A stretch of DNA of 64,000 nucleotides from an archaeon (GCA_035655435.1 DASRUN010000066.1:520-64519), one strand, 5' to 3'. Counted from the first letter of the stretch, positions 4,245 through 39,819 are shown. The notes: a model not told the origin generated them from the letters alone. Numbers and translations are program-made.

Positions 4245-4529
4245 ATGGATGTCTTCTGGTCTGTTCACGCAAAGGAGAGATTTATTGAAAGGTCTTTACT
4301 TTACGGTTTTTCCAGAACAGAATTGGAGCAAGTTATCAGAAAGCAGCAGGTAAGAATTGATTGTGGGTTTGATGATAAATACAGGAAACAAAAGTTTGAA
4401 ACCATTGGAGTAGTCAATAGTAAGTTCTTTACTGTTCAGAAGGCTGAAGATAGGAAAAAAATTATTGTCATAACTTTATGGGAATCAAGTCAAAAGGAGG
4501 TTGATTTATGGTTATCAAAACAAAAATGA
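4245..4529 (+). CDS. DUF4258-like toxin candidate
   Basis: N-terminal FWSVHAKERFIERS resembles the H-A-x-E-R motif of DUF4258 small toxins. Its stop overlaps the next start as ATGA. The ORF track starts at TTG 4206. Confidence 0.45.
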   Translation: MDVFWSVHAKERFIERSLLYGFSRTELEQVIRKQQVRIDCGFDDKYRKQKFETIGVVNSKFFTVQKAEDRKKIIVITLWESSQKEVDLWLSKQK

Positions 4530-4861
4530 ATTGCCCTGTTTGCAACGGGGGCGCTGTTCTGAAGAAAGCAACAACTAAACTTTTCAATGGTTTAATTGTG
4601 TTGAAGGATGAACCGTTGTACGAGTGCATGAAATGCGGTGAACAATTTGCCACCGGCAAGATGGTTGATGAGAGCATAAAGCGCGCAAAAAAGGCGTTTG
4701 TATTCAACAGGCAAATAATCTCTACCGGCGGCAGCCTCGGAATAACATTCCCTTCGGATTTGTCCGAATATTATAAATTAGGCAAGGGAAAAAACGTAAG
4801 CATCATTCCCGAAAATGAGAATACGATAAAAATAATCACGCACAATAAAAAGAATTTGTGA
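4526..4861 (+). CDS. zinc-ribbon (MqsA/YgiT-like) plus AbrB-fold antitoxin candidate
   Basis: CPVCNGG...ECMKCGE four-Cys ribbon, followed by GGSLGITFPSDLSEYYKLGKG (AbrB/SpoVT-like). ATGA overlap with the upstream ORF. Confidence 0.5.
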   Translation: MNCPVCNGGAVLKKATTKLFNGLIVLKDEPLYECMKCGEQFATGKMVDESIKRAKKAFVFNRQIISTGGSLGITFPSDLSEYYKLGKGKNVSIIPENENTIKIITHNKKNL

Positions 4862-6499: not shown

Positions 6500-6588
6500 G
6501 CCCTCGTGGCTCAGTGGTAGAGCGGCGGTTTTGTAACCCGAAAGGGCAAACTAACCGCAGGTCGTGGGTTCAATCCCCACCGAGGGCT
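6500..6588 (+). tRNA. tRNA-Thr (TGT) with 17-nt intron
   Basis: Acceptor GCCCTCG/CGAGGGC, anticodon stem GCGGT/ACCGC, loop TTTGTA|A. Canonical 37/38 intron at 6536-6552 (ACCCGAAAGGGCAAACT, with a CCC-GAAA-GGG hairpin). Confidence 0.8.
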
Positions 6589-7774: not shown

Positions 7775-8227
7775 GTGGAATACGATTTGAGCGAAAAGTA
7801 CATTCAGTTTGTTGCAAACTATGATGACTGGGTTTCAATAAGAAAACTCACTATAGAAACCGCAACCGACCCCAAAACAATAATGGAATTTTTGGCGAGC
7901 CTGAACACGAGTACGGACAAAAAAGTTGAGGAAAACCTCAGGAAAATTGTTGCACTCGATAAGGTTGATGAAGCACTTGCATCTCTTGAACTTGGAAAAA
8001 AAGACACTGCAAAAGCATTGGAAGAGGTTAATTCAAGAAAAGTCGGTTCGGTTATAAAAGAAATTACGGAAAATCTGGAAAAATTATCCAAACCAGAAAA
8101 AAAGGAAATCGAACAATTCTGTAGGGTTTATGCAATGAGAAAAGCCCTCAAACAATGTGGGATTGGTGTTGATTATTCCGAAATTGAAATTCCCGGAATG
8201 AAAAGAGTAATGAAGAAAAAAGTGTAA
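7775..8227 (+). CDS. hypothetical protein
   Basis: 150-aa ORF (GTG start). No motif recognised. Confidence 0.4.
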   Translation: MEYDLSEKYIQFVANYDDWVSIRKLTIETATDPKTIMEFLASLNTSTDKKVEENLRKIVALDKVDEALASLELGKKDTAKALEEVNSRKVGSVIKEITENLEKLSKPEKKEIEQFCRVYAMRKALKQCGIGVDYSEIEIPGMKRVMKKKV

Positions 8228-8232
8228 CAAAA

Positions 8233-9090
8233 ATGTTTGAAGCAATAGGCGCGGAAATAGCATTCAGCCATTATGTTCAAAGCTTTGCAAACTCATCGCT
8301 TGACTATTTTTTTCTTGTAATAACACAATTAGGAAACCCTGCTCTCTGGTTATCGCTCAGCGCATTTCTTTATTGGAAAGGCGAGGAAAAAAAATCTGTT
8401 TTTCTTTCAACTTCTCTTTTATTCACGAGCGCATTTGTGGGGCTCCTAAAACCAACTCTTGGGAGATTGAGACCGCCTGAAAGTGAATTCATGGTTCTTG
8501 TTAGTGAAACCCAATCACAATTTGCAATGCCTTCAGGGCATGCAACAACAATCGCAGGGGTTTTCGGTTATTATTGGGAGAAATTTGCGAAAAATGCAAG
8601 AGTGCTGGGATTGTTTATTGTTCTTTTAGTTCTTGCATCAAGGGTTTATTTGGGGGCACATTATATTGGCGATGTAATTGTTGGAGGCCTCTTTGGTTTT
8701 TTGATTGGGAGAATTGTGCATGCAATTGAACAGAATTATTCGAAAATAAAATTCGGAAAAAAAGTTTTGCTCGAGGAAATAGGTTTGGTTGCAACTATTG
8801 CAATTTCAATTATAATATCGCTCGCGCTCAGAGAATTTTCTTTGGGCACAATATTCTTTGGTTACTTTGCAGGAGTTTTTGCATTCAAGCTTTTGAACCT
8901 TGATTCTGAAAAACTTTCCGGGAAAAAACTTTGGTTAAAGGAAATCCCCGGTTTTGCGGTTTTGGGAATTTTGAGTTTTTTTGCACTCAATACAGAATTC
9001 ATGCCGGAACTGCTTTTCCTTGCGGGAAGTTGGATTAGTTTTGTTTATCCGTTCATTTACCTAAAAGTATCCAAAAAACCTGTTAAATAA
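8233..9090 (+). CDS. PAP2-family lipid phosphatase
   Basis: All three PAP2 motifs are present: KPTLGRLRPP, PSGHAT, SRVYLGAHYIGDV. Multi-pass membrane protein. Confidence 0.75.
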   Translation: MFEAIGAEIAFSHYVQSFANSSLDYFFLVITQLGNPALWLSLSAFLYWKGEEKKSVFLSTSLLFTSAFVGLLKPTLGRLRPPESEFMVLVSETQSQFAMPSGHATTIAGVFGYYWEKFAKNARVLGLFIVLLVLASRVYLGAHYIGDVIVGGLFGFLIGRIVHAIEQNYSKIKFGKKVLLEEIGLVATIAISIIISLALREFSLGTIFFGYFAGVFAFKLLNLDSEKLSGKKLWLKEIPGFAVLGILSFFALNTEFMPELLFLAGSWISFVYPFIYLKVSKKPVK

Positions 9091-9145: not shown

Positions 9146-9263
9146 CCCTCCTTAGCTTAGTAGCTAAAGCGTCCGGCTGTAGAACGACATTACTCCTTTG
9201 GGAGAGAAAATAATCGCAAGTGCGGTTACCGGAAGACCCCCGGTGCAAATCCGGGAGGGGGGA
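9146..9263 (+). tRNA. tRNA-Tyr (GTA) with 45-nt intron
   Basis: Acceptor CCCTCCT/AGGGGGG (one G-U), D stem GCTT/AAGC, anticodon stem TCCGG/CCGGA, loop CTGTAG|A. Intron at 9183-9227. T arm CCCGG-TGCAAAT-CCGGG. Confidence 0.8.
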
Positions 9264-28148: not shown

Positions 28149-29613
28149 TTTGGTTGACGGTTGGGCGGTAATAGATTCTTATTTTAGGGACAAAAACATT
28201 GCCCAAATGGAAATAGATTCGTTCAACCAGTTTGTGGAAAAAAAACTCGATGAAATAATTGCGGAAAACAAGGAAGTTGTTCCGAAAATCGAGGAAGTAA
28301 AAGTTCAATTTGACAAAATTTCCGTTATAAAACCGCGCATAGTGGAAGCTGACGGCTCTCCTAGAAACGAATTTTTCCCAATGGAAGCAAGATTGAGAAA
28401 TAGAACTTATTCAAGCCCGATTTTTTTGACAATGAAACTTTTGAGAAGAGATGTTGAACAGGATAAAAAACAAACTTACATCGGAGAGCTTCCTGTAATG
28501 TTGAAAAGCAATTTGTGCTGGTTGAACGGTAAAACAAACGAAGAACTTATTGAAATGGGCGAAGATCATCTTGATTTCGGCGGATATTTCATTGTAAACG
28601 GTTCTGAAAAAGCGTTGATGACACAGGAAGTTCTTGCATCCGACAGGGTTATTGTTTCTGAACAATCCGATAGAATTGTCGCGGAAGTTATTTCAACAAG
28701 GGGAGCTTTCAAAGGAAGGGTTAGAATTCTTAGAACTCCTGACGGAATTTTGAATGTTACATTTCCTGCTTCCCCTAGAAAATTAAAATTATTTGTTTTG
28801 CTCAAAGCACTTGGATTGAGAAGCCCGCAAACAATTAAGGAAGCTTTCATTGAACAACAGGAAATTCAAAATGATGTTTTGATTAACATTGAAAATCTTT
28901 TGGTTAAGAGCGAGAAGGAAGCACTTGATAAAATCGGAAAGTTTGTTGCACCCGGACAAGTGGAAGAATACAGGTTGAGAAGAGCCCAGGAAGTTATTGA
29001 TGCATTCTTATTGCCGCACATTGGACAGGATCAAAAAGACAGATTGGCAAAAGCATATTATTTGGTTATGATGGCAACCAAGGCAATTGAAAAAGCCTAC
29101 AAATTGAGAGAAGAAGATGACAAAGATCATTACGCAAACAAGAGATTGGAATTGTCGGGAAAATTAATGGAACACTTGTTCAGATATTCTTTCAAATATT
29201 TCATCAAGGATTTGAAATTCCAAATTGACAGAACAGTTACAAGGAGAAGAAAACTTAACATTTCAACAATTGTAAGACCGGGCGCGGTTTCGGAAAGAAT
29301 CAGATTTGCAATGAGCACAGGAAATTGGATTGGACGCGCTACAGGAGTTTCAAAATTCATGGATCGAGTAAATTATTTATCTCCATTAACGGATTTGAGA
29401 AAAGTAAAAAGCCCATTGGATAAAAACAGGGAACTTTATGAAGCAAGAGATGTTCACGGAACGCATTGGGGAAGATTGTGCGCAATAGAAACTCCTGACG
29501 GACCGCAATGTGGGTTGGTAAAAAATCTTGCATTGATGGCAGAGGTTACGGTTGAAACGGATGAAGAGCCGATTGAAAAATTGTTGAAGGATATGGGCGT
29601 GAAATTAAGATGA
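28138..29613 (+). CDS. rpoB2: RNA polymerase subunit B'' (N-terminal half of split RpoB)
   Basis: 491 aa. IDSFNQFV..., ANKRLELSGKLM, and ends after GLVKNLALMAEV. TTG start overlaps the rpoH stop. Confidence 0.9.
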   Translation: MWFNLVDGWAVIDSYFRDKNIAQMEIDSFNQFVEKKLDEIIAENKEVVPKIEEVKVQFDKISVIKPRIVEADGSPRNEFFPMEARLRNRTYSSPIFLTMKLLRRDVEQDKKQTYIGELPVMLKSNLCWLNGKTNEELIEMGEDHLDFGGYFIVNGSEKALMTQEVLASDRVIVSEQSDRIVAEVISTRGAFKGRVRILRTPDGILNVTFPASPRKLKLFVLLKALGLRSPQTIKEAFIEQQEIQNDVLINIENLLVKSEKEALDKIGKFVAPGQVEEYRLRRAQEVIDAFLLPHIGQDQKDRLAKAYYLVMMATKAIEKAYKLREEDDKDHYANKRLELSGKLMEHLFRYSFKYFIKDLKFQIDRTVTRRRKLNISTIVRPGAVSERIRFAMSTGNWIGRATGVSKFMDRVNYLSPLTDLRKVKSPLDKNRELYEARDVHGTHWGRLCAIETPDGPQCGLVKNLALMAEVTVETDEEPIEKLLKDMGVKLR

Positions 29614-29624
29614 TTGCAAACCAA

Positions 29625-29727
29625 ATGAGTGGGACCGTAGGTCGCACAGGTCTGACGGCGAACCAAGTGCTGCCGAAGGCGCACGCTCCCTTCCGAGGAG
29701 CACGCTCGGACGCGGAGGTGTTCCCGA
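29625..29727 (+). promoter_or_regulatory. GC-rich structured leader cassette, copy A (before rpoB')
   Basis: GTGGGACC-GTA-GGTCGCAC hairpin, CACAGGTCTGACGGCG, GCTCC/GGAGC hairpin, GAGCAC word. Ends GGAGGTG + 7 nt + ATG. See findings. Confidence 0.55.
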
Positions 29728-31551
29728 ATGGTTAAGGAAGCAAAGCAGGCAAAGGTTTACATTAACGGAAGACTTATCGGATTCCATCCCGATCCCATGA
29801 AATTGACAAGGGAAATTATTGCGCGCAGAAGAGAGTCAAAAATCTCCGAGCAGGCAAATGTTGCTTTCCACGAAGATACAAATGAAGTTTACATTAACAC
29901 AGACGCAGGAAGGGTTCAGAGACCGTTGCTTGTTGTTGAGAACGGAAAATTAAAAATTACCGATGAAATTGTAAAGCAGGTTAAGGAAGTTAAAAAAACT
30001 TGGCAGGATCTTATCCGCGAGGGATATGTTGAATACCTCGATGCGGAAGAAGAGGAAAATGCTTTCATTGCTTCAAACGAAAAAGAACTCGGAAAAGAGC
30101 ACACGCATTTGGAAATTGATTCCGCAACAATTTTGAGTGTAATAAGTTCCATGATTCCTTATCTCGAACACAACATGGCGGGAAAAGCGCTTCACGGAGC
30201 AAAAATGTTCAAGCAGGCACAGGGTTTCGGAGCAAGCAATTTTAATCTTAGAAGCGATACTGAAGGATATCTTTTGCATTACCCACAAAAATCTTTGGTG
30301 AAAACAAAAACAATGCACATGGTTGGATTGAATCAGAGACCGCAAATTCAGAATCTTGTTGTTGCAATAATGCCGTATTACGGCTTCAATATTTTGGATG
30401 CAGTAATTCTCAATAGAGGCGCTGTGGAAAGAGGAATGGGAAGAAGCTCTTATTTTAGAACTTATGAAAGCGCGGAAAACAGGTATCCTGGCGGACAGAT
30501 AGATAAATTTGAAATTCCGACAGAAGAAACCGTCGGATTTTTGGGAGAAGGATTTTACAAAAAGCTTGGTCATGACGGAATAATCCAGCTTGAATCCATT
30601 GTTGAAGAAAATGATGTTTTGATTGGAAGAACCTCCCCTCCAAGATTTTTGGAAGAAATCAATGAGTTCGGTGTTGTTCAGGAAAAAAGAAGGGAAACAA
30701 GCGTTACAATAAGAAAAGGCAAGGACGGTTTTGTTGACAAAATTTTTGTAACAGAATCGGAAGCCGGAAACAAGCTTGTGAAAGTTAAAGTTAGAAGCCA
30801 GAGAATTCCCGCGCTTGGAGATAAATTCAGTTCAAGGCACGGGCAGAAAGGTGTTGTTGGATTAATTGTTCCTGAGGAAGACATGCCTTTTACACCCGAT
30901 GGAATAAAACCTGATTTGATTTTGAACCCGCACTCTGTTCCTTCAAGAATGACCATTGGACACTTGCTTGAAATGCTTGCGGGAAAAGCTTCCGCAATGA
31001 AAGCAATGCAGATAGACGGAACTCCTTTTGGCGGAGTCAAACAAGCTGAACTTGAAAAAATGCTTGATGCAGCCGGATTAAGAAAAAATGCAAAAGAAGT
31101 TTTTTACGACGGTACAACAGGAAAAAGAATCCAAGGAGAAATTTTTACGGGACCGGTTGCTTATAGAAGATTGTTCCACATGACCGCGCACAAAATACAA
31201 AGCAGAGCTCGCGGACCGGTTCAGATTTTGACAAGACAGCCTACAGAAGGAAAGGAAAAAGAGGGCGGATTAAGATTTGGAGAAATGGAAGGAGAAACAT
31301 TGGTTGGACACGGAGCGGCAATGCTTTTGCAGGAAAAATTCATTGATGATTCCGATAAAGTTACAATGTGGGTTTCCGAAACCGCGGGAGTAATAGGATT
31401 TGAGGATCAAATCAGAAAAGTGAAGAGGGTTCTTGAGGCAAATGATTCGAAAATTTATCCTGTTGAAATGAGCTATGGTTTCAAATTATTGCTTGATGAA
31501 TTGAAAGCTCTTGGAGTATATCCTAAATTGATTTTGACGGACAAGGTGTAA
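29728..31551 (+). CDS. rpoB1: RNA polymerase subunit B' (C-terminal half of split RpoB)
   Basis: 607 aa. GDKFSSRHGQKGV, NPHSVPSRMTIG, and GGLRFGEMEGETLVGHGA motifs. Confidence 0.95.
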   Translation: MVKEAKQAKVYINGRLIGFHPDPMKLTREIIARRRESKISEQANVAFHEDTNEVYINTDAGRVQRPLLVVENGKLKITDEIVKQVKEVKKTWQDLIREGYVEYLDAEEEENAFIASNEKELGKEHTHLEIDSATILSVISSMIPYLEHNMAGKALHGAKMFKQAQGFGASNFNLRSDTEGYLLHYPQKSLVKTKTMHMVGLNQRPQIQNLVVAIMPYYGFNILDAVILNRGAVERGMGRSSYFRTYESAENRYPGGQIDKFEIPTEETVGFLGEGFYKKLGHDGIIQLESIVEENDVLIGRTSPPRFLEEINEFGVVQEKRRETSVTIRKGKDGFVDKIFVTESEAGNKLVKVKVRSQRIPALGDKFSSRHGQKGVVGLIVPEEDMPFTPDGIKPDLILNPHSVPSRMTIGHLLEMLAGKASAMKAMQIDGTPFGGVKQAELEKMLDAAGLRKNAKEVFYDGTTGKRIQGEIFTGPVAYRRLFHMTAHKIQSRARGPVQILTRQPTEGKEKEGGLRFGEMEGETLVGHGAAMLLQEKFIDDSDKVTMWVSETAGVIGFEDQIRKVKRVLEANDSKIYPVEMSYGFKLLLDELKALGVYPKLILTDKV

Positions 31552-31556
31552 TTGAT

Positions 31557-31653
31557 ATGATGACAAAAATGTTGAACGAAGCTAGTGTGACCGCAGGTCG
31601 TGGCATCGAGCACCGCGAAGATGGCACACCTCTCTCAGCGAGGTGTCGCTGAA
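31557..31653 (+). promoter_or_regulatory. GC-rich structured leader cassette, copy B (before rpoA')
   Basis: Begins with a duplicate of the rpoA' start (ATGATGACAAAAA). GTGTGACC-GCA-GGTCG hairpin. ACACCTC/GAGGTGT hairpin holds the SD 8 nt before ATG 31654. Confidence 0.55.
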
Positions 31654-34266
31654 ATGATGACAAAAAGAATTGAGGGAATTGAATTCAGGATTATGGGTCC
31701 GGAGTTTATTAGAAAAATGAGCGGGATAGAAATCAAGAGCCCTGAAACTTATGATAAAGACGGCTTCCCAATGGAAGGCGGATTGATGGATAATCATCTT
31801 GGGGTTATCAATCCCGGATTGAGATGCAAGACCTGCGGAAATACAATGAAAAAATGCCCCGGCCACTTTGGACACATAGAATTGGTTAGGCCGATTGCAC
31901 ACTCTGAATTCGGAAAAAAACTTGAAATTTTGATGCAGGCAACATGCCAGAGCTGCGGAAGAATAGCAATCCAAGCTGATAAGCTTGAGCAGTTAAGGGC
32001 TTTTATCGGCGATGAAACAATTAATATTGCAAAAAAGATTTTGGCAAAAACAAAAAAAGTGAAAAAATGTCCGCATTGTACTGCTGACAGACGCGAAATT
32101 TCACTTGACAAGCCCACAAACTTTTACATTGACAAGGACAGAATTTATCCCACGCAAATAAGGGAATGGGTTGAAAAAATCCCCGACAAGGATTTGGAAT
32201 TCTTTGGTTATGAACAAGGAAAACTCAGGCCGGAGTGGTTTATCATGACCGTGCTCCAGGTTCCGCCGATCAATCTTAGGCCGAGCATTACACTTGAATC
32301 AGGAATAAAAAGCGAAGACGATCTAACACACAAACTTGTTGATATAATTAGAATAAACATGAGATTGAAGGACAACATTGATGCAGGCGCACCGCAACTT
32401 ATCATTGAAGATCTTTGGGATTTGCTCCAATATCATGTGACAACGTATTTCAACAATAATACCGCGGGAGTTCCTCCGGCAAAACACAGGAGCGGAAGAG
32501 CACTTAGAACTCTTGTGCAAAGATTGCAGGGAAAGAAAGGAAGATTCAGGTACAACTTAACAGGAAAAAGAGTTAATTTTGCGGCTCGTTCAATCATAAC
32601 TCCCGATCCAATGCTTTCAATCAACGAACTCGGTGTTCCCCAAGAAATTGCGGACAACATGACTGTTCCGGAAATAATTACAAAAGGAACCTTGACAGAA
32701 GCAAAGAACATGATCAAGGAAGGAAAAGTAATTTATGTTATCAGGCCTGATGGAATGAGAAAAAAAGTTGTTGAGGCAAACATGGAAGCTATTTTGGAAG
32801 AGCTTGATGTCGGATTTAAACTTGACAGAAAATTGAAAGACGGAGATATTGTTCTCTTTAACAGACAGCCTTCGTTGCACAGGCTTTCAATGCTCGCACA
32901 CAGAGCAAAAATTATGAAAGACAAGACATTCAGATTGAATTCAATTGTGTGCAAACCATACAATGCGGACTTTGATGGAGACGAAATGAACATGCATGTT
33001 CCGCAAACTCCTGAAGGAATTGCGGAAGCAACAGAACTAATGCTTGTTGAAAAACAAATTATTTCCCCAAGATACGGAGCCCCGGTAATAATTCTTGATG
33101 AAGACGGAGTTTCAGGATGCTTTATACTAACAATGAAGCAAACCGTGTTTGATAAGGATAAGGCGTTCCAGTTTTTCCAGTTAATGAATTTGCAGGAAAT
33201 TCCAAAGCCGGATGTCGGAAAGGACAAATATTCAGGAAAACTAATTTTCTCGCAATTGTTGCCAAAAGATTTGAACATGGAGTACAAAACCAAATTGCAT
33301 GACATAATCAAAAGAGAAGATCCAAACAACGCACTATTGAAAGACCCGTACAAGAATGATTTGATAGTTAAGATTGAGAAAGGCCAATTGAAAGCCGGAA
33401 TAATTGATGCGGTCAGTCTTGGAGAAGGAAAAGGAAAACTTGTTGATGCACTTGCAAGGGATTATCCTCCTGCAGTAATAAGGGGTTTTTATGACAGTAT
33501 TTCAAAAATAATCGGCGGTCTTATAACGGAAGTTGGAATGACAGTAAGCCTTGAGGAATACACTCCGAGCAGCAAGATACTCAGTTTGAGAGAAAAAGCC
33601 GTTGAGGAAATGAGAAAAGAAACCGATTCGTGGGTTAAAAAATTCGAGAAAGGACATCTCGATTTAATTCCGGGAAGAAATCAGGAAGAGAGCTTTGAAA
33701 TTTACATGATGAGAACAGGGGCAGCTGCAAAAGAAAAATTGCAGAAGCAAATCATGAAAGAACTTGTTGATTCTGTAATGGTTGATGAACCTGAATTCAA
33801 CAGCAATGTAATGATACTTTCAGGTTCAAGAGGAAACATCATCAATCTTGTAAACTTATCCGGAATGTGGGGACAGGCATCTGTAAGAGAGGGAAGGCCG
33901 AAGAGAGGATTCTCGAATAGATTGATCGCACTCAACAAAAGAAAGGATGTTGGAATAGATGCGGGGGGATTCATTTACCACAATTTCATGGAAGGAATGA
34001 GCTCTTATGAATACTTCTATCACACAATGGGTGGAAGACAGGGAGAAGTTGACACGGGAGTTTCAACAAAGGTTTCCGGTTATTTGTACAGAAGGCTGGC
34101 AAATTCTTTGAAGGATCTTGTTGTAAACAATGATGCAACTGTGAGAACGGCAAACAAGAATATTGTACAGTACAAGTACGGAGAAGACGGAGTCTTCCCG
34201 GAAAAAACATTTAAAGGAAAAAGCGTTTCTGTGAAAAGAGAGCTTGAAAAAATGAGAAGCAAGTGA
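31654..34266 (+). CDS. rpoA1: RNA polymerase subunit A'
   Basis: Zinc motifs [17 protein letters not shown], and the [10 protein letters not shown] catalytic loop. Start set at [11 protein letters not shown]. The ORF-track start 31600 reads through the GC-rich cassette. Confidence 0.95.
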
Positions 34267-34273
34267 TGAAAAA

Positions 34274-35527
34274 ATGTCCGCAAAAAAAACCGTGAAAAAG
34301 CACGTTGAAAAAAAACCGGCGAAAAAAACCGAGCCGAAAATACCTAAAGAAAAAAAGGCTAAAAAAATCGTTGAGGAGAAAAAGGAAGTTGAAAGGGTTT
34401 ACATGAAAGGCGATCTTTTCTTCAAAGAGGGTTTGCCTGCAAAAATTTTTGAGGATTTTGAAAAAACAGTTTTAGAAATGAAGCTCAAGGACAAGGAAAA
34501 AGATAAGCTCATGGAGCAGATACTCAAACAATTTGAATTTGTAAAAGTTGAATCGGGAGAAGCCGTTGGAATTATCACCGCACAGAGCCTTGGAGAGCCG
34601 GGAACACAATTGACTTTGAGAACAAAGCACTATGCGGGTTCTGCGGAAGTTTCTGTCGGATCAGGAATACAAAGAGTGGAAGAAATAGTTGACGGCAGGT
34701 CAAAGGCAAAATATCCAACCATGACAATTTACATTGCGGATGAAAAACTAAGAAAAGATGAGAAAAAATTGGATTTGTATGCAAAAACGCTTATTGATGT
34801 GAGAATTGATGATGTGATTAAAGTTCACGAGGATCTTATCAAGGGAAAAGTTTCGATAATGATTGATAAGGAAGCCGTTGAATTGAGAAATGTGAATGTT
34901 GAGGAACTCATTGATAAAATAAATAAGCACATGAAAAAAGATGCAAAGCAGAAGGACAAATATTCAATGGATTTTACTTTCAAAAACGAATCATTCCTCA
35001 AAATCAGAAAAACATTAAACAAACTCAGAAACACACGTATTCAGGGGGTTAGGGGAATTGAAAAGGTTATTGTTACAAAAGAAAATAATGAGTCTGTCAT
35101 CAAAACAAGGGGAACAAACCTCAAAACAATTGTGAAAATGGAGGAAATTGACGGAGCAAGAACAACAACAAATGACATAAAAGAAATTTCAAAAGTCCTT
35201 GGAATAGAAGCCGGAAGGGTTTCAATTGTGAACGAGCTCCAGGGTGTTCTGAGAGAAAATGGAATTTCAGTTGATATTAGACACATAATGCTTTTGGCGG
35301 ATTCAATGACTTGGGATGGAGACATAAAGGGAATTGTGAGAACAGGAATCACAAGAGGAAAATCAAGTCCGTTTGCAAGAGCGGCATTTGAAGAAACCGT
35401 GAAACATTTATTGGAAGCAAGCTTCAAGGGGGAAGTAGAGCACTTAGAAGGCGTTGTAGAAAACATTATTGTGGGACAGCCGATTAAAGTGGGAACCGGA
35501 AGAGTAAGCCTTGTGGTAAAAAAATAG
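34274..35527 (+). CDS. rpoA2: RNA polymerase subunit A'' (with Lys-rich N-terminal extension)
   Basis: [23 protein letters not shown] trigger-loop region. The first ~40 aa are K/E-rich. Confidence 0.9.
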
Positions 35528-35545
35528 GAATTTGGGTGAAAGGTT

Positions 35546-35845
35546 ATGGTTGATGTTGCAAAGGAAATCAGGCGTGTTGTGGACACGGGAAAGGTAGTTT
35601 TTGGCACAAAAAACTCGGAGAAAAGCCTTAAAAACGGTACAGGGAAGCTTATTATTATAGCAAATAATGCCCCAAAACTCTCCAAAGAGAAATTGGTTTC
35701 TTTGGCGGAAACAGGGGAAACTCCTTACTCTATCTTTGAAGGATCGGGCATAGAACTCGGAAGCGTTTGCGGAAAACCTTTCACTATCAGTTCAATGGTT
35801 GTTCTTGACAAGGGAAAAAGCAAGGTATTGGAAATAGTAAAGTGA
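35546..35845 (+). CDS. rpl30e: ribosomal protein eL30
   Basis: 99 aa. GKVVFGTKNSEKSLKNGTGKLIIIANNAP pattern, in the conserved position after rpoA''. Confidence 0.9.
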   Translation: MVDVAKEIRRVVDTGKVVFGTKNSEKSLKNGTGKLIIIANNAPKLSKEKLVSLAETGETPYSIFEGSGIELGSVCGKPFTISSMVVLDKGKSKVLEIVK

Positions 35846-35852
35846 TCTGAAC

Positions 35853-36266
35853 GTGAAACTTGATTTCGAACAAATACGCTTCATAAATGCATTGGATGAA
35901 ATGACAAGGGCAACTGCAAAAGATTGCTTTATCCACGAAGGATCCATTGTTTTCTTGGTTCCTTCAAAGCACATGAGAAAAGCAATAGGAAAGAATGGAG
36001 TAACGATACAGAAAGTAAAAGAAAAACTCGGAAAACCAATAGAGCTTTTTGAGTATTATGAAAATCCGGAAGGTTTTTTCGAAAAAGCCTTTTACAAAGC
36101 GAGTGTTGAAAAAGTTGAAATAAGAAAAACAAACGACAGGACAATTGCATTTGTGAAAACAAAAAGTGATGATAAAAAAATTATTTTGAACAATTTGAGG
36201 AGACTTGATAAGATAAAAGAGCTTGCAAAAAGGAATTACAATATTGAAGAAGTTAGGATAAGGTGA
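35853..36266 (+). CDS. nusA: archaeal NusA-like KH-domain transcription factor
   Basis: 137 aa. KAIGKNGVTIQKVKEKLGK KH motif, in the conserved position before rps12. GTG start. Confidence 0.85.
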   Translation: MKLDFEQIRFINALDEMTRATAKDCFIHEGSIVFLVPSKHMRKAIGKNGVTIQKVKEKLGKPIELFEYYENPEGFFEKAFYKASVEKVEIRKTNDRTIAFVKTKSDDKKIILNNLRRLDKIKELAKRNYNIEEVRIR

Positions 36267-36292
36267 AAGATTTGTTTACAAAAGTTTTGATT

Positions 36293-36426
36293 ATGAATGA
36301 AGCTCGTGTGACCGAAGGTCGCACACCTCTGAACTCCCGGAACGCCGGGAGCACGTTGCACCGCACTTTGTGCGGGGCTAGTCCAACCGAAGGTTGGACA
36401 CCTCTGAACGCGGAGGTGTCCGCATA
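36293..36426 (+). promoter_or_regulatory. GC-rich structured leader cassette, copy C (before rps12)
   Basis: Five hairpins folded by hand: 36306-24, 36335-50, 36361-75, 36383-97, and 36396-421. The last pairs GGACACCTC with GAGGTGTCC, i.e. the SD. Confidence 0.55.
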
Positions 36427-36864
36427 ATGGCAGAAGGAGAATTTGCGGGAAGCAGTTTGCAGAAAAAAAGGAAAAAGTGGCGCAGAAAAGACAGGAAGCA
36501 CCAGAAAAAAATTAAAGCAAAAATGGGGAAAGCCAAAAGAGAAGATCTTTTGGAAGGGTCTCCGCAAGCGAAAGGAATTGTAATTGAAAAAAGAGGGGTA
36601 ACGGCAAAGCAACCTAACTCCGGAATAAGAAAATGTGTAAGAGTACAGTTGATAAAAAACGGCAAGCAGGTTACGGCTTTGGCGCCAAAAGACGGTGCAA
36701 TAAAATTTATCGATGAACATGATGAGGTTACAATAGAGGGAATCGGCGGAGCACAAGGCGGTCCAAAGGGAGATCTTTGGGGCGTTAAGTACAGGGTTAC
36801 GCATGTAAACGGAATTGCACTTGAAATGCTTAGAAAAGGAAAGAAAGAGAAAGTTAAGAGATGA
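36427..36864 (+). CDS. rps12: ribosomal protein uS12
   Basis: [36 protein letters not shown] signature. Start set at MAEGEF (the track start 36394 reads through the cassette). Confidence 0.95.
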
Positions 36865-36870
36865 TTTTTT

Positions 36871-37494
36871 ATGGATAGAAAAAGCGATACAACAATGCTG
36901 GTTTTCGGAAAGTGGGATACAAGCGGGGTTCAAATCAAGGATCCGAGCCTTGCAAAATATGTTTCACTTGAATCAAAAAAAATTCCCCACACATTCGGAA
37001 AACAGACGAGAAAAAGATTTGCAAAAGGAAAACTTAGTATTGTGGAAAGATTGATCAACAAAATAATGAGATCCGGGCAAGGGAAAAGAAAACTTTCCGG
37101 AAAATACATTAGAGGCAGGGGAAGCTGCGGAAAAAAATTGCAGGCAATGCACATAGTTGAAAATGCGTTTGAGATCATTGAAAAGAAAACAAACAAGAAT
37201 CCTATTCAGGTTCTTATTGACGGAATACAATTCGCAGGCCCAAGAGAAGATATTACAAGAATTAAGAGGGGCGGAGTTTCTTATTCTGTTTCCGTTGATG
37301 TTGCACCTTTAAAAAAAGTTGATGAATCTTTGAAAAATTTGGCTCTTGCTGCTTTTTCCGGTTCGTTCAACAAAAAAACAAGCGCATCAGAAGCCCTTGC
37401 GGCTGAATTGATTGCCGCATCAAACGAGGACAACGCAAGCTTCAGCGTCAAGAGAAGAGACGAAGTTGAAAGGATTGCAAAAGCATCCAGATAA
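36871..37494 (+). CDS. rps7: ribosomal protein uS7
   Basis: 207 aa. LVERLINKIMRSG... and C-terminal KRRDEVERIAKA pattern. Conserved order. Confidence 0.95.
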   Translation: MDRKSDTTMLVFGKWDTSGVQIKDPSLAKYVSLESKKIPHTFGKQTRKRFAKGKLSIVERLINKIMRSGQGKRKLSGKYIRGRGSCGKKLQAMHIVENAFEIIEKKTNKNPIQVLIDGIQFAGPREDITRIKRGGVSYSVSVDVAPLKKVDESLKNLALAAFSGSFNKKTSASEALAAELIAASNEDNASFSVKRRDEVERIAKASR

Positions 37495-37530
37495 TGAGCT
37501 GATTGAATGAAAAATTATTTTACAACTACA

Positions 37531-37626
37531 ATGAGCGAAGCTAGTGTGACCGAAGGTCGTGGCATCGAGCACCGCGAAGATGACACAGGTCTAACGGCGG
37601 ACCTCTCCGCCGCGAGGTGTCGCTGA
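37531..37626 (+). promoter_or_regulatory. GC-rich structured leader cassette, copy D (before EF-2)
   Basis: About 50 nt nearly identical to copy B. Segments AGGTC, GACCTC and GAGGTGT form mutually exclusive pairings. TGA is followed directly by ATG 37627. Confidence 0.55.
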
Positions 37627-39819
37627 ATGGCCAAAAAGGAAGATATTGTAAAGCTAGCGGAAAAGCTGATGAATACTAGAGAAAACATCAGAAACATGGG
37701 GATAGTTGCGCACATTGATCATGGAAAATCAACTCTTGCCGATTCACTTGTTGCTGCCTCAGGATTGATGAGCGAAGAGCTTGCCGGCCAACAAAGAGTA
37801 ATGGATTATGAGGATCAGGAACAAGCTCGAGGAATAACAATTAACGCAGCAAACATTTCCCTTTCGCACACACTCGACGGAAAAGATTATTTGATCAATC
37901 TGATTGACACGCCCGGGCATGTTGATTTTGGGGGAGAGGTAATTCGAGCAATGAGAGCCGTTGATGGAGTTATTCTTGTTGTTGATGCGGTTGAAGGAGT
38001 AATGCCGCAAACCGAAACAGTTATCAGGCAGGCATTAAGGGAATACGTGAAACCGGTTCTTTTCATAAACAAAGTTGACAGGCTTATCAACGAATTACAA
38101 TTATCAGAACAGCAGATGCAGGAAAGATTTGTGAAAACAATTACTCATGTTAATACTCTCATAAAAAAGAATGTTCCAAAAGAATTTGCGGAAGAATGGA
38201 CGGTAAAAGTACAGGATGGTTCTGTTACATTTGGAAGCGCATACAACAAGTGGGCGGTTTCAGTTCCAAGGATGTCAAAAACAGGGGTTTCGTTCAAACA
38301 GGTTTACGAGTATTTGAAAAGCGGCAACCAAAAAGAGTTAGCGCAAAAAAGCAGGTTAACCGAAGCAATATTGGATATGGTTACAAGACACCTTCCAAAT
38401 CCTGTGAAAGCGCAATCATACAGGATGGCGGTTATTTGGAAAGGGGAATCTGAATCAAACATTGGAATTGCAATGAAAACGTGCGACGAGAACGGTCCTT
38501 TCGCAATGATGGTTACGGATGTTAGTGTTGACAAACACTCCGGAGATATTGCAACCGGAAGAGTTTACTCGGGAAAAGTACAGAAAGGATTGAAAGTGAA
38601 ACTTATCGGAAGTCATAAAGAAGTCCAGATACAAAAAATCGGTTTGTTCATGGGCGCGGATTTTGTCGAAGCCGTCATGGTTCCTGCAGGAAACATTGTT
38701 GCGCTTGTGGGATTGAAAGAAGTTTATGCGGGAGAGACAATCAGCACGGAAGCTGTGAAGGCATTTGAAAGTTTCATGAGCGAAGTCGAACCTGTTATTA
38801 CAATTTCGATTGAGGCAAAAAACACGAAAGATCTTCCAAAACTTATTGAGGTTATAAGACAGCTGAGCAAAGAGGATCCGAATTTGAAGACCACAATAAA
38901 TCAGGATACCGGAGAGCATCTTTTGAGTGGAATGGGAGAACTTCACTTGGAAATAAACCAATACAGAATTGAACAGCATCACAAAGTTCCTATTACAGTT
39001 TCACAACCGATTGTTGTTTACCACGAAACAATAAACAAAGAATCCCCGGTTCTTGAATCAAAGAGCCCGAACAAGCACAACAAGCTCAAATTGCACGCTG
39101 AAAAAATTCCCCAAGAACTCTTGGATAATCTTATCAAAAGCCACATTGACGGAAAAATAAAACCCAAAGATAAAGAAATGATCGCAAAATTCCAGGAAAT
39201 GGGTTTTGAAAATGATTTCTCCAAAAAAATTTGGGCAGTGCACAATAATTGCATGCTAGCGGACATGACAAGGGGGATAGAGGCATTGCATGAAATTAGG
39301 GAACTTGTAATACAGGGTTTCAATGATACAATGGATGCCGGACCGCTTGCAAAGGAAAAATGCTTTGGAGTACTTATTGTAATAGAAGATGCAACATTGC
39401 ATGAAGATGCAATCCATAGGGGGCCAGCACAAATGCTTCCAACAATGACAAGAGGTTGTTATGCGTGCATGCTTTCCGCGGATGCTGTTCTTTACGAACC
39501 AAAGCAAAGGTTAACAATTACAGTTCCGGAAGATTATTTAGGAGCGGTTTCTAAAGAACTTGGTTCTAGGAGAACACAAATATCCGAAATGCGCCAGGAA
39601 GGGGATTCATCTATTATAATTGGAAACGCCCCGGTAAAGGAACTAATCGGATTTTCCAGCACTATCAGGGGGGCAACACAAGGAAGGGCCTTGTGGACTG
39701 CTGAATATGCGGGCTATGAATTGCTTCCAAGGGAATTGCAAAAGAAAACCATTGAGGAAATAAGGAAGAGAAAGGGAATGGATCCCGAAGTCAAGCCTGC
39801 TGCATTCTTTTTGGATTAA
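37627..39819 (+). CDS. fusA: translation elongation factor aEF-2
   Basis: 730 aa. NMGIVAHIDHGKSTL, DTPGHVDF, NKVDR GTPase motifs. A His-containing loop (HEDAIHRGPAQ) marks the diphthamide site. Confidence 0.95.
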   Translation: MAKKEDIVKLAEKLMNTRENIRNMGIVAHIDHGKSTLADSLVAASGLMSEELAGQQRVMDYEDQEQARGITINAANISLSHTLDGKDYLINLIDTPGHVDFGGEVIRAMRAVDGVILVVDAVEGVMPQTETVIRQALREYVKPVLFINKVDRLINELQLSEQQMQERFVKTITHVNTLIKKNVPKEFAEEWTVKVQDGSVTFGSAYNKWAVSVPRMSKTGVSFKQVYEYLKSGNQKELAQKSRLTEAILDMVTRHLPNPVKAQSYRMAVIWKGESESNIGIAMKTCDENGPFAMMVTDVSVDKHSGDIATGRVYSGKVQKGLKVKLIGSHKEVQIQKIGLFMGADFVEAVMVPAGNIVALVGLKEVYAGETISTEAVKAFESFMSEVEPVITISIEAKNTKDLPKLIEVIRQLSKEDPNLKTTINQDTGEHLLSGMGELHLEINQYRIEQHHKVPITVSQPIVVYHETINKESPVLESKSPNKHNKLKLHAEKIPQELLDNLIKSHIDGKIKPKDKEMIAKFQEMGFENDFSKKIWAVHNNCMLADMTRGIEALHEIRELVIQGFNDTMDAGPLAKEKCFGVLIVIEDATLHEDAIHRGPAQMLPTMTRGCYACMLSADAVLYEPKQRLTITVPEDYLGAVSKELGSRRTQISEMRQEGDSSIIIGNAPVKELIGFSSTIRGATQGRALWTAEYAGYELLPRELQKKTIEEIRKRKGMDPEVKPAAFFLD

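Follow-up and report, generated by a model that had tools for sequence, protein, structure and literature searches.

In leaders that sequester the Shine–Dalgarno (SD) sequence and in leader-peptide attenuators (ermC-type leaders, RNA thermometers), pairing between an anti-SD segment and the SD competes with an alternative hairpin, and a leader open reading frame (ORF) crosses the competing segments. In engineered bicistronic design (BCD), a first SD (SD1) and start codon drive a short ORF, a second SD (SD2) is embedded a few nucleotides before the target AUG, the leader stop codon overlaps or abuts the target start (UAAUG, UGAUG), and the helicase activity of the ribosome frees the structured second ribosome-binding site (RBS2; PMC6302717). 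Termination–reinitiation coupling at ATGA or TGATG overlaps has been documented in archaea (PMC6728339, PMC10666635), and palindromic repeats of ~100–150 nt, the Rickettsia palindromic elements (RPEs), invade genes of a reduced genome with the frame kept open (PMC10969869). Here we describe a family of small structured repeat elements, called cassettes below, four of which lie directly in front of rpoB', rpoA', rps12 and the elongation factor 2 (EF-2) gene in a 64,000-nt stretch of archaeal DNA (GCA_035655435.1 DASRUN010000066.1:520-64519; the window, meaning the whole stretch analysed).

The cassettes resemble each of these systems in part. The leader start, SD2 spacing and stop–start overlap of a BCD were all found in them (a leader stop in one relative, locus L021, is the exception), but the cassettes are natural, repeated, apparently insertional and archaeal, occur at many genes and carry conserved hairpins and an anti-SD, and coupling is here predicted from their sequence. 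Like RPEs, they are small palindromic repeats of a reduced genome whose open frame would let the host gene survive; RPEs, however, sit inside ORFs and are translated within the host protein as a conserved peptide, whereas each cassette forms a separate mini-cistron at a start codon, with its own stop and SD and an unconserved peptide. With REP/BIME, ERIC, BOX, Correia and MITE repeats, the cassettes have in common that they are short, GC-rich, structured, multicopy, modular (as in BOX), transcribed within operons and variable between relatives, but they keep one orientation, always stand at a start codon, bring a functional-looking SD and have neither terminal inverted repeats nor a fixed target duplication. 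The competition between anti-SD:SD pairing and a hairpin, with a leader ORF traversing both, recalls ermC-type attenuators, from which the cassettes differ in having no conserved stalling peptide or regulatory codons and in being repeated at unrelated genes instead of orthologous at one family. No description of such elements was found in the searchable literature, and there is a substantial chance that they merit a class of their own.

We estimate at somewhat above one half (roughly 55%) the probability that the family is specific to the Iainarchaeota/Diapherotrites lineage, that its copies were inserted in sense orientation at the start codons of SD-led operon genes, and that each carries a leader cistron which would relay translation to the downstream gene by termination–reinitiation. 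The relatives of the window are Candidatus Iainarchaeum/Diapherotrites metagenome-assembled genomes (MAGs), and the same window sequence has been assembled from several metagenomic samples. Loci other than the window are cited by L numbers.

Four GC-rich cassettes and their common RNA structure

The site carries the gene string rpoH, rpoB'', rpoB', rpoA', rpoA'', L30e, NusA-KH, S12, S7 and EF-2 (Pfam). A preliminary description of the sequence had placed a GC-rich block at each of four junctions, and all of its junction coordinates are correct: the upstream genes stop at 29613, 31551, 36266 and 37494, and the downstream ATGs lie at 29728, 31654, 36427 and 37627. The remaining junctions of the gene string measure 6–18 nt, as had been stated. 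Cassette cores contain 60–68% G+C versus 39% in the window, a hand count for cassette D (59 G+C in 96 nt) was exact, and the four cassettes are the four top 60-nt GC islands of the window (maxima 0.65–0.72). The similarities described among the blocks were recovered as well: cassettes B and D differ at 2 of 50 positions, CACAGGTCT[G/A]ACGGCG is common to A and D, and the word GAGCAC occurs in all four. When GTGTGACCGNAGGTCG was searched for with up to three mismatches, four matches were obtained, all on the + strand, against 0.29 expected, and none of 100 shuffles reached four. The motif (G)GAGGTGT was rightly said to precede the ATG in every cassette, but its spacing is 6–7 nt and not 7–9 nt. 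Overlooked at that stage were the two tandem units in cassette C, the leader ORFs with their stop–start overlap, and a direct repeat flanking B. Other GC islands in window genes (15226, 16265, 41724, 46366, 47310 and 58257) proved to be Cys-rich coding sequence.

All four cassettes lie on the + strand and are built from recurring modules. Cassette A (29614–29727, between rpoB'' and rpoB'; 51.7 bits, E = 2e-16) consists of a hairpin termed H1 (29629–29647; GUGGGACC-GUA-GGUCGCAC, with one G·G mismatch), an CACAGGUCUGACGGCG module, a GCUCC.../CCGAG... module (29685–29711) and SD2 (29714–29721; GGAGGUGU, 6 nt upstream of the rpoB' AUG). It does not have the 5' GAAGCUNGU motif, and its 3' module is also present at the rpoB'|rpoA' junction of L014 and the L7Ae|S28e junction of L018. 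Cassette B (31552–31653, between rpoB' and rpoA'; 65 bits) has the 5' motif, an H1 with a GA hairpin in its 3' strand (31602–31625; outer stem CAUC/GAUG, internal loop 5'-GA/5'-GAA, inner GC..GC), an anti-SD (CACCUC, 31627–31632) and the beta variant of SD hairpin II (31635–31652; UCAGCGA-GGUG-UCGCUGA), in which SD2 is GAGGUGU at 31640–31646. In cassette C (36267–36426, between nusA and rps12), unit C1 (36294–36345; 52.9 bits) and unit C2 (36369–36429; 70.2 bits) follow each other in tandem, with two extra hairpins between them (36335–36350 and 36361–36375). The H1 of C1 (36306–36324; GUGUGACC-GAA-GGUCGCAC) is followed by the anti-SD CACCUC (36324–36329), and that of C2 (36381–36399; GUCCAACC-GAA-GGUUGGAC) is a diverged copy with two compensatory pair changes. 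An anti-SD at 36399–36404 and the alpha variant of SD hairpin II (36410–36423; GCGGA-GGUG-UCCGC), with SD2 GGAGGUGU at 36412–36419, complete the cassette. Cassette D (37495–37626, between rps7 and EF-2; 55.3 bits) comprises the 5' motif, H1 and GA hairpin 98% identical to those of B (GA hairpin at 37561–37584), CACAGGUCUAACGGCG, a CGGCGG-ACCUCU-CCGCCG hairpin (37595–37623, with the anti-SD ACCUCU in its loop and then GCGA-GGUG-UCGC) and SD2 (GAGGUGU, 37614–37620).

A covariance model (R1) was built from the copies, with H1 and SD hairpin II as its structure, and applied without filters to both strands of the window. The only copies recovered were A, B, C1, C2 and D, all on the + strand at 52–70 bits (the next match had E = 0.19). 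The homology and modularity first proposed are supported. Copies outside the training set were also found: that of L017 scored 77 bits, the two of L018 scored 35 and 28 bits, and that of L021 was weak (12 bits, E 0.02). All 11 R1 matches with E < 0.001 are sense-oriented and abut a start codon, and the occurrence in both orientations that would mark a REP/BIME-like family was thus not seen. With Rfam 15, only tRNAs in the window exceeded the gathering threshold, the cassettes were unmatched at E up to 10 (29400–37800), and eight related loci gave no match, in agreement with the earlier remark that the blocks belong to no familiar RNA family. A pattern scan of one genome per species gave 0 matches, and viral contigs likewise gave 0 cassette matches. 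In JGI metagenomes, the pattern scan found four contigs carrying a ~55-nt minimal form, AAGCNAGU, then GUGUGACC-GNA-GGUCGCAC (H1), ACCUCU, a spacer, ACGCGGA-GGUG-UCCGCGU, A and AUG; these copies directly precede rps28e (after L7Ae), rpl18e (after a tRNA) or an NMD3-family gene. The window copies are this minimal element enlarged by extra modules.

The predicted structure is supported by compensatory changes. A GNA triloop caps the 8-bp helix of H1, and SD hairpin II presents GGUG in its loop on four covarying stems (ACGCGGA/UCCGCGU, UCAGCGA/UCGCUGA, ACGGA/UCCGU and CAGCUGA/UCGGCUG). In the model-based alignment, which was used because a MAFFT alignment of all variants was too poor, 89.9% of cells are paired and both partners have changed in 6 of the 15 pairs; none of 500 shuffles equalled the real alignment in percentage paired or in covariation score, and pairing fell to 18–41% in slid controls, although an alignment fitted to the structure leans towards it. 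An invariant CACCUC, complementary to the SD, lies 7–8 nt upstream of it. Its pairing with the SD and the formation of SD hairpin II are mutually exclusive and of similar energy, and the minimum-energy fold differs among copies. The predicted unpaired probability of SD2 is 0.02–0.23 in 7 of the 11 copies, and the others expose only GGUG, in a tetraloop. The GA hairpin, inserted in the H1 3' strand in B and D, is also present in L010, L013, L015, L018, L020 and L021; its outer stem covaries (CAUC/GAUG, CUGUC/GACAG, CUAUC/GAUAG, CCCCAUC/GAUGGGG), its inner stem is free to vary, and its 5'-GA/5'-GAA internal loop is kept in 7 of 9 cases. Compared with a kink-turn (K-turn), the core letters fit (GA opposite GAA-GA), but the covariation (CUAUC/GAUAG, CUGUC/GACAG, CAUC/GAUG) supports a plain helix with the second GA in Watson–Crick pairs.

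Three other identities were considered for these sequences and rejected. The ATGATGA/CTGA of B, which resembles a C/D box small RNA, is the duplicated rpoA' start plus hairpin II, is not kept in other copies and matched no snoRNA model. Mimicry of 16S helix 45 and the anti-SD tail comes down to the trivial CACCUC likeness of any anti-SD. The AT-rich 5' regions of C and D hold TTTACAA-like boxes, but these gave no support for internal archaeal promoters, as they lie 15–18 nt from the nearest ATG, compared with about -30 in the leaderless genes of the window.

Very stable GC hairpins between cistrons of one operon (folding z = -5.2 for C), always intercistronic and always sense, would also suit an element of mRNA processing or stability, whose hairpins act as exonuclease barriers or endonuclease sites that segment the RNA polymerase (RNAP)-S12-S7-EF-2 transcript, as bacterial REP/BIME or Correia elements do. 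Such a role would account neither for SD2 and the anti-SD nor for the constant spacing to the AUG and the stop–start leader ORF, and A and B would then separate subunits required in equal amounts; we consider it highly unlikely.

Leader reading frames and a possible translational relay

In each of the four window cassettes one frame stays open, beginning with an ATG at or close to the upstream stop codon or the native start and ending with a stop on or beside the real start (all ORFs on the + strand). Leader ORF A (29610–29735, 41 codons) begins at an ATG overlapping the rpoB'' stop (ATGA) and ends at a TAA 5 nt inside rpoB' (ATGGTTAA), terminating at AUGGUUAA. Leader ORF B (31557–31652, 31 codons; MMTKMLNEASVTAGRGIEHREDGTPLSARCR*) starts 5 nt past the rpoB' stop, behind the native SD AAGGUGU, and its TGA stands 1 nt before the rpoA' AUG (UGA-A-AUG). 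Leader ORF C (36293–36427) runs for 44 codons from the ATG at 36293, is open back to a GTG at 36263 that overlaps the nusA stop, and its TAA overlaps the rps12 AUG (UAAUG). Leader ORF D (37507–37626, 39 codons) starts 12 nt past the rps7 stop and its TGA directly precedes the EF-2 AUG (UGAAUG); comparison with the native junctions of relatives revealed that its ATG holds the native EF-2 start position behind GAGCUGAU. Relative to the target start, the leader stops thus fall at +5 (A), -4 (B), -2 (C) and -3 (D), and most other copies also have their stop within -4 to +5 nt of the real start.

Across copies, the leader frames extend over 22–45 codons. The same layout recurs in L007, L008, L017, both L018 copies (UAAUG, UGAUG) and the L014 copies; L006 has such a frame too, but in another frame relative to H1 or from a GTG start. 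In A–D, SD2 ((G)GAGGUGU) precedes the AUG by 6–7 nt, and the spacing is equal in L006, L007, L008, L017 and L018; as every copy brings a strong SD whose spacing to the start codon is fixed, the suggestion of a cis role in translation remains plausible. The 5' ends of L008, L016c and L017 share ATGAARAU, so the element seems to bring its own ATG. In a strict test, in which only the first ATG after the upstream stop was accepted and the cassette interior was shuffled, 9 of 15 cassettes reached the start region, where 3.07 would be expected (P = 4e-4). One to six stops are present in every case in the frame that follows the leader frame, and the leader frame occurs in all three phases relative to the host frame, with a stop codon separating it from the host gene.

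The peptides themselves appear unconstrained. The variable nucleotide of the H1 loop falls on the second position of its codon (E/A/V), hairpin II has compensated one-base deletions that alter the C-terminus (NAEVSA* vs SARCR*), and the GA hairpin is read in three frames among copies (GIEHRED, LSSHRGED, FYRAAAK). Because of the interchangeable loop codon and the frame-shifting hairpin II indels, constraint seems to act on RNA structure and on the openness of the frame and not on the peptide. The cassettes might otherwise be taken for small conserved protein genes of 22–45 aa, since an ORF with an ATG and a nearby SD1 exists in each window copy and gene callers annotated orf69 (L014), orf52 and orf29 (L015) and orf32 (L020). 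The same frame inconsistency, with homologous modules read in all three frames, led us to reject this interpretation, whose residual probability is very small; the nucleotide identity of the elements also lies far above that of neighbouring conserved genes, and at the five H1-type loci gene callers reported no leader ORF (0/5).

If these frames are translated, ribosomes arriving from the upstream cistron or loading at SD1 would read the leader cistron and open the hairpins that cover SD2; after terminating on the real start codon, they would reinitiate at that codon, aided by SD2. The essential downstream gene would in this way remain expressed, in strict coupling to upstream translation, despite the insertion of 80–160 nt of structured RNA. 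A cassette could then be tolerated in an essential operon because it relays translation.

The other genes of the window mostly look leaderless, with TTTAAATA near -30. Most monocistronic or first genes (e.g., at 4245, 5704, 23555 and 49152) have an TTTAAATA-like box ~30 nt ahead of the ATG and lack an SD, a pattern suggestive of leaderless mRNAs, and internal operon genes have weak (A)GGUGA SDs. The restriction of the cassettes to transcription and translation operons may therefore reflect where SD-led internal cistrons occur.

Variable distribution and probable insertion

Known cassettes precede rpoB', rpoA', S12, EF-2, S28e, L24e, L18e or NMD3, and their positions vary between species. In the RNAP-S7 region of relatives with S7 ~80% identical, L012 and L019 have no cassettes and their junctions measure 3–21 nt, L013 has one (rpoB'|rpoA'), L014 has cassettes at rpoB''|rpoB', rpoB'|rpoA' and rpoA''|L30e, L015 and L020 have them at rpoB''|rpoB' and S12|S7, and L021 has one (S7|EF-2). 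Further syntenic copies are those at S28e|L24e in L017, at L7Ae|S28e and S28e|L24e in L018 (two diverged composites) and at S7|EF-2 in L021. Cassette C is missing from L011 (RpoA'' 82% identical), in which the nusA-rps12 gap holds only AAGGUGU, and neither the L3-L4-L23-L2-S19-L22 operon nor EF-1a of the window has a cassette. The preliminary idea that the blocks mark module boundaries of the core operon is not compatible with this distribution, that is, with positions varying by species, two cassette-free relatives and an uninterrupted ribosomal protein (r-protein) operon. Of its alternative proposals, a shared cis-acting device or a domesticated mobile repeat, the mobile half fits the variable presence, the near-identical non-orthologous copies and the junction duplications described below, and a conserved leader of the riboswitch kind finds no support.

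The junctions suggest that the cassettes are insertions, apparently spread between SD-ATG junctions, and not conserved leaders. ATGATGACAAAAA stands on both sides of B as a 13-nt exact and 26-nt 85% identical direct repeat that includes AGGTGT; its upstream copy (31544–31569, +; AGGTGTAATTGATATGATGACAAAAA) and its downstream copy (31641–31666, +; AGGTGTCGCTGAAATGATGACAAAAA), which agree exactly in the final 13 nt, represent a duplicated rpoA' junction, and the downstream copy holds SD2 and the real rpoA' start. Similarly, at S12|S7 in L015 and L020, ~21–27 nt comprising the last S12 codons, stop, SD and S7 ATG are repeated, ~35 nt are repeated at the rpoB'' junction of L013, and the rpoB'' 3' end is present three times in L015. 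The duplication length is not fixed (the ATG only in L008, L017 and L018, 13/26 nt in B, ~21–27 nt and ~35 nt), which is not MITE-like, and no terminal inverted repeats linking the ends were found in L008, L017, B or D, where only internal hairpins occur. Because the duplications vary from 3 to 35 nt and an AGGUG...AUG microhomology is shared by element end and target, we infer that template switching or gene-conversion-like spread is favoured over a classical transposase with a fixed stagger.

Several minor observations concern individual copies. A third H1-type copy is found in L016 (3445–3477), where it begins directly behind the L24e stop and is truncated by the end of the contig. The gene after L24e is ndk in L017, so a gene of this operon unrelated to translation may also have the element in front of it. 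In L017, too, the H1 loop region CCGAAGG (1796–1802) recurs just after the L24e start (1839–1845; ATGCCGAAGG), which may be chance or insertion microhomology. The public rpoA' gene call is 22 codons too long (892 vs 870 aa), starting from a GTG inside cassette B (window 31600–31653; L001 4718). Assemblies break in cassette B, with Ns in L001 (~4730–4745) and contigs of L002 and L003 that begin at CCGCGAAGATGG (window 31613), probably owing to the 50 nt over which B and D are nearly identical; an apparent strain difference in B of L001 was rejected, being this gap of Ns. The GC-rich rps12-rps7 block of L011 (1815–1985) was likewise rejected as a cassette, as it extends S7 in frame at the N-terminus (P0016); P/A/K/E-rich low-complexity N-terminal extensions of 20–75 aa occur in many S7 proteins of Iainarchaeota (P0005, P0009, P0016, P0020-P0024, P0058, P0100).

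A sporadic, lineage-specific distribution, the near-identity of B and D and the assembly breaks at the repeat would equally be expected of a purely selfish or neutral repeat of the REP, MITE or RPE kind with no role in expression, which would sit at SD-ATG sites only because others are lethal in a compact genome and whose open frame would be a by-product of GC richness (null probability 0.1–0.43 per copy). This explanation accounts poorly for the sense orientation and start-codon position of every significant model match, for the lack of copies in the window's many other spacers or on its minus strand, and for the correctly spaced SD as a conserved part of the element; in addition, stop–start overlap and in-frame ATGs exceed chance. 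We regard it as unlikely.

Insertion of a relaying leader cistron has points of its own to answer, and the following weigh against it. The null probability just given means that an open frame is fairly likely at 60–68% G+C, and the strict-test result, which draws on homologous and hence non-independent copies, is supportive and not conclusive. By the first-ATG rule of that test, the leader ORF of L021 stops 13 nt before the start, and D, L006, L017, L013 and L020 also miss it, although in D, L006 and L017 the failure is due only to a short spurious ATG overlapping or just after the upstream stop. In C, 26 nt separate the ATG from the nusA stop, and no obvious SD1 serves this ATG. Among the window ORFs, neither a transposase nor another mobilising gene was found, and mobility with neither terminal inverted repeats nor a fixed target duplication is mobility without a mechanism. 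Leader translation, reinitiation and SD2 masking are all deduced from the nucleotide sequence and its predicted folds. Finally, the retained purine-rich 5'-GA/5'-GAA loop of the GA hairpins, the position of all known copies in front of informational genes, and the conservation of the core could point in another direction: the L017 copy (S28e|L24e) and the L008 copy (L7Ae|S28e), one junction apart, are identical at 54 of 55 positions (98%), versus 72% (L7Ae) and 77% (S28e) nucleotide identity for the neighbouring r-protein genes.

These last three features, together with the covarying pairs and the two exclusive SD-region foldings of similar energy, would be expected of a host cis-regulatory leader in which a trans factor (a small RNA, a metabolite, an initiation factor or an r-protein, such as L7Ae or L30e) binds H1, the GA hairpin and the bistable anti-SD/SD region and so co-regulates the translation of ribosome, RNAP and elongation-factor genes. 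A regulator of this kind is hard to reconcile with positions that are non-orthologous between species, with the cassette-free L012 and L019 and the equally cassette-free r-protein operon and EF-1a of the window, with junction duplications that point to insertion, with the lack of an Rfam match, and with a GA hairpin whose covariation seems not to fit the K-turn register. We consider it rather improbable.

Should inserted leader cistrons indeed relay translation, they may, as a tentative extension, represent a self-neutralising mobile element of DPANN essential operons, a portable leader cistron that spreads between SD-ATG junctions, possibly between species, and rebuilds the initiation signals it displaces with its own ATG, a hairpin-masked SD2 and a stop–start overlap. 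By analogy, and just as tentatively, translational coupling might then stand in for the splicing of introns, inteins and IStrons. If true, translational relay would be a third way for selfish or semi-domesticated DNA to reside inside essential genes, beside RNA splicing and protein splicing, and a natural archaeal counterpart to BCD; it would also explain why Iainarchaeota MAGs show conspicuous GC islands, wrongly called gene starts and broken assemblies. The cassettes could offer compact parts, namely an SD that is masked by a hairpin and obligatorily coupled, and could serve as markers with which to follow recent exchange of DNA between uncultivated DPANN lineages.

Other features of the window and its relatives

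A ~45-nt conserved motif was observed upstream of rpl30e in L015 (~8655–8700), L020 (~8640–8690) and L021 (~2345–2395). It reads CCUUGAGARGCG...GCGGAGUAAGGUCUUCUUUU, forms a CCUU/AAGG helix with GA-rich internal loops, has no Rfam match and could be an L30e autoregulatory, K-turn-like leader; the window does not have it, and its rpoA''|rpl30e gap is 18 nt. In L015, a Fic-domain gene (8033–8425) is inserted between rpoA'' and rpl30e.

Inteins (Intein_splicing plus LAGLIDADG) are present in EF-2 and rpoB'' of relatives (L010 12994–16842; L014 1–1162, 7991–9696 and 10679–14407; L020 10650–14378), and rps12 of L014 is apparently split by ~1.7 kb beginning with an intein-like CVAPDTK.... The window's own genes are intein-free. 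Two of its tRNA genes carry introns, namely a tRNA-Thr with a 19-nt insert (6500–6588) and a 118-nt tRNA match (9146–9263) that was missed by ARAGORN.

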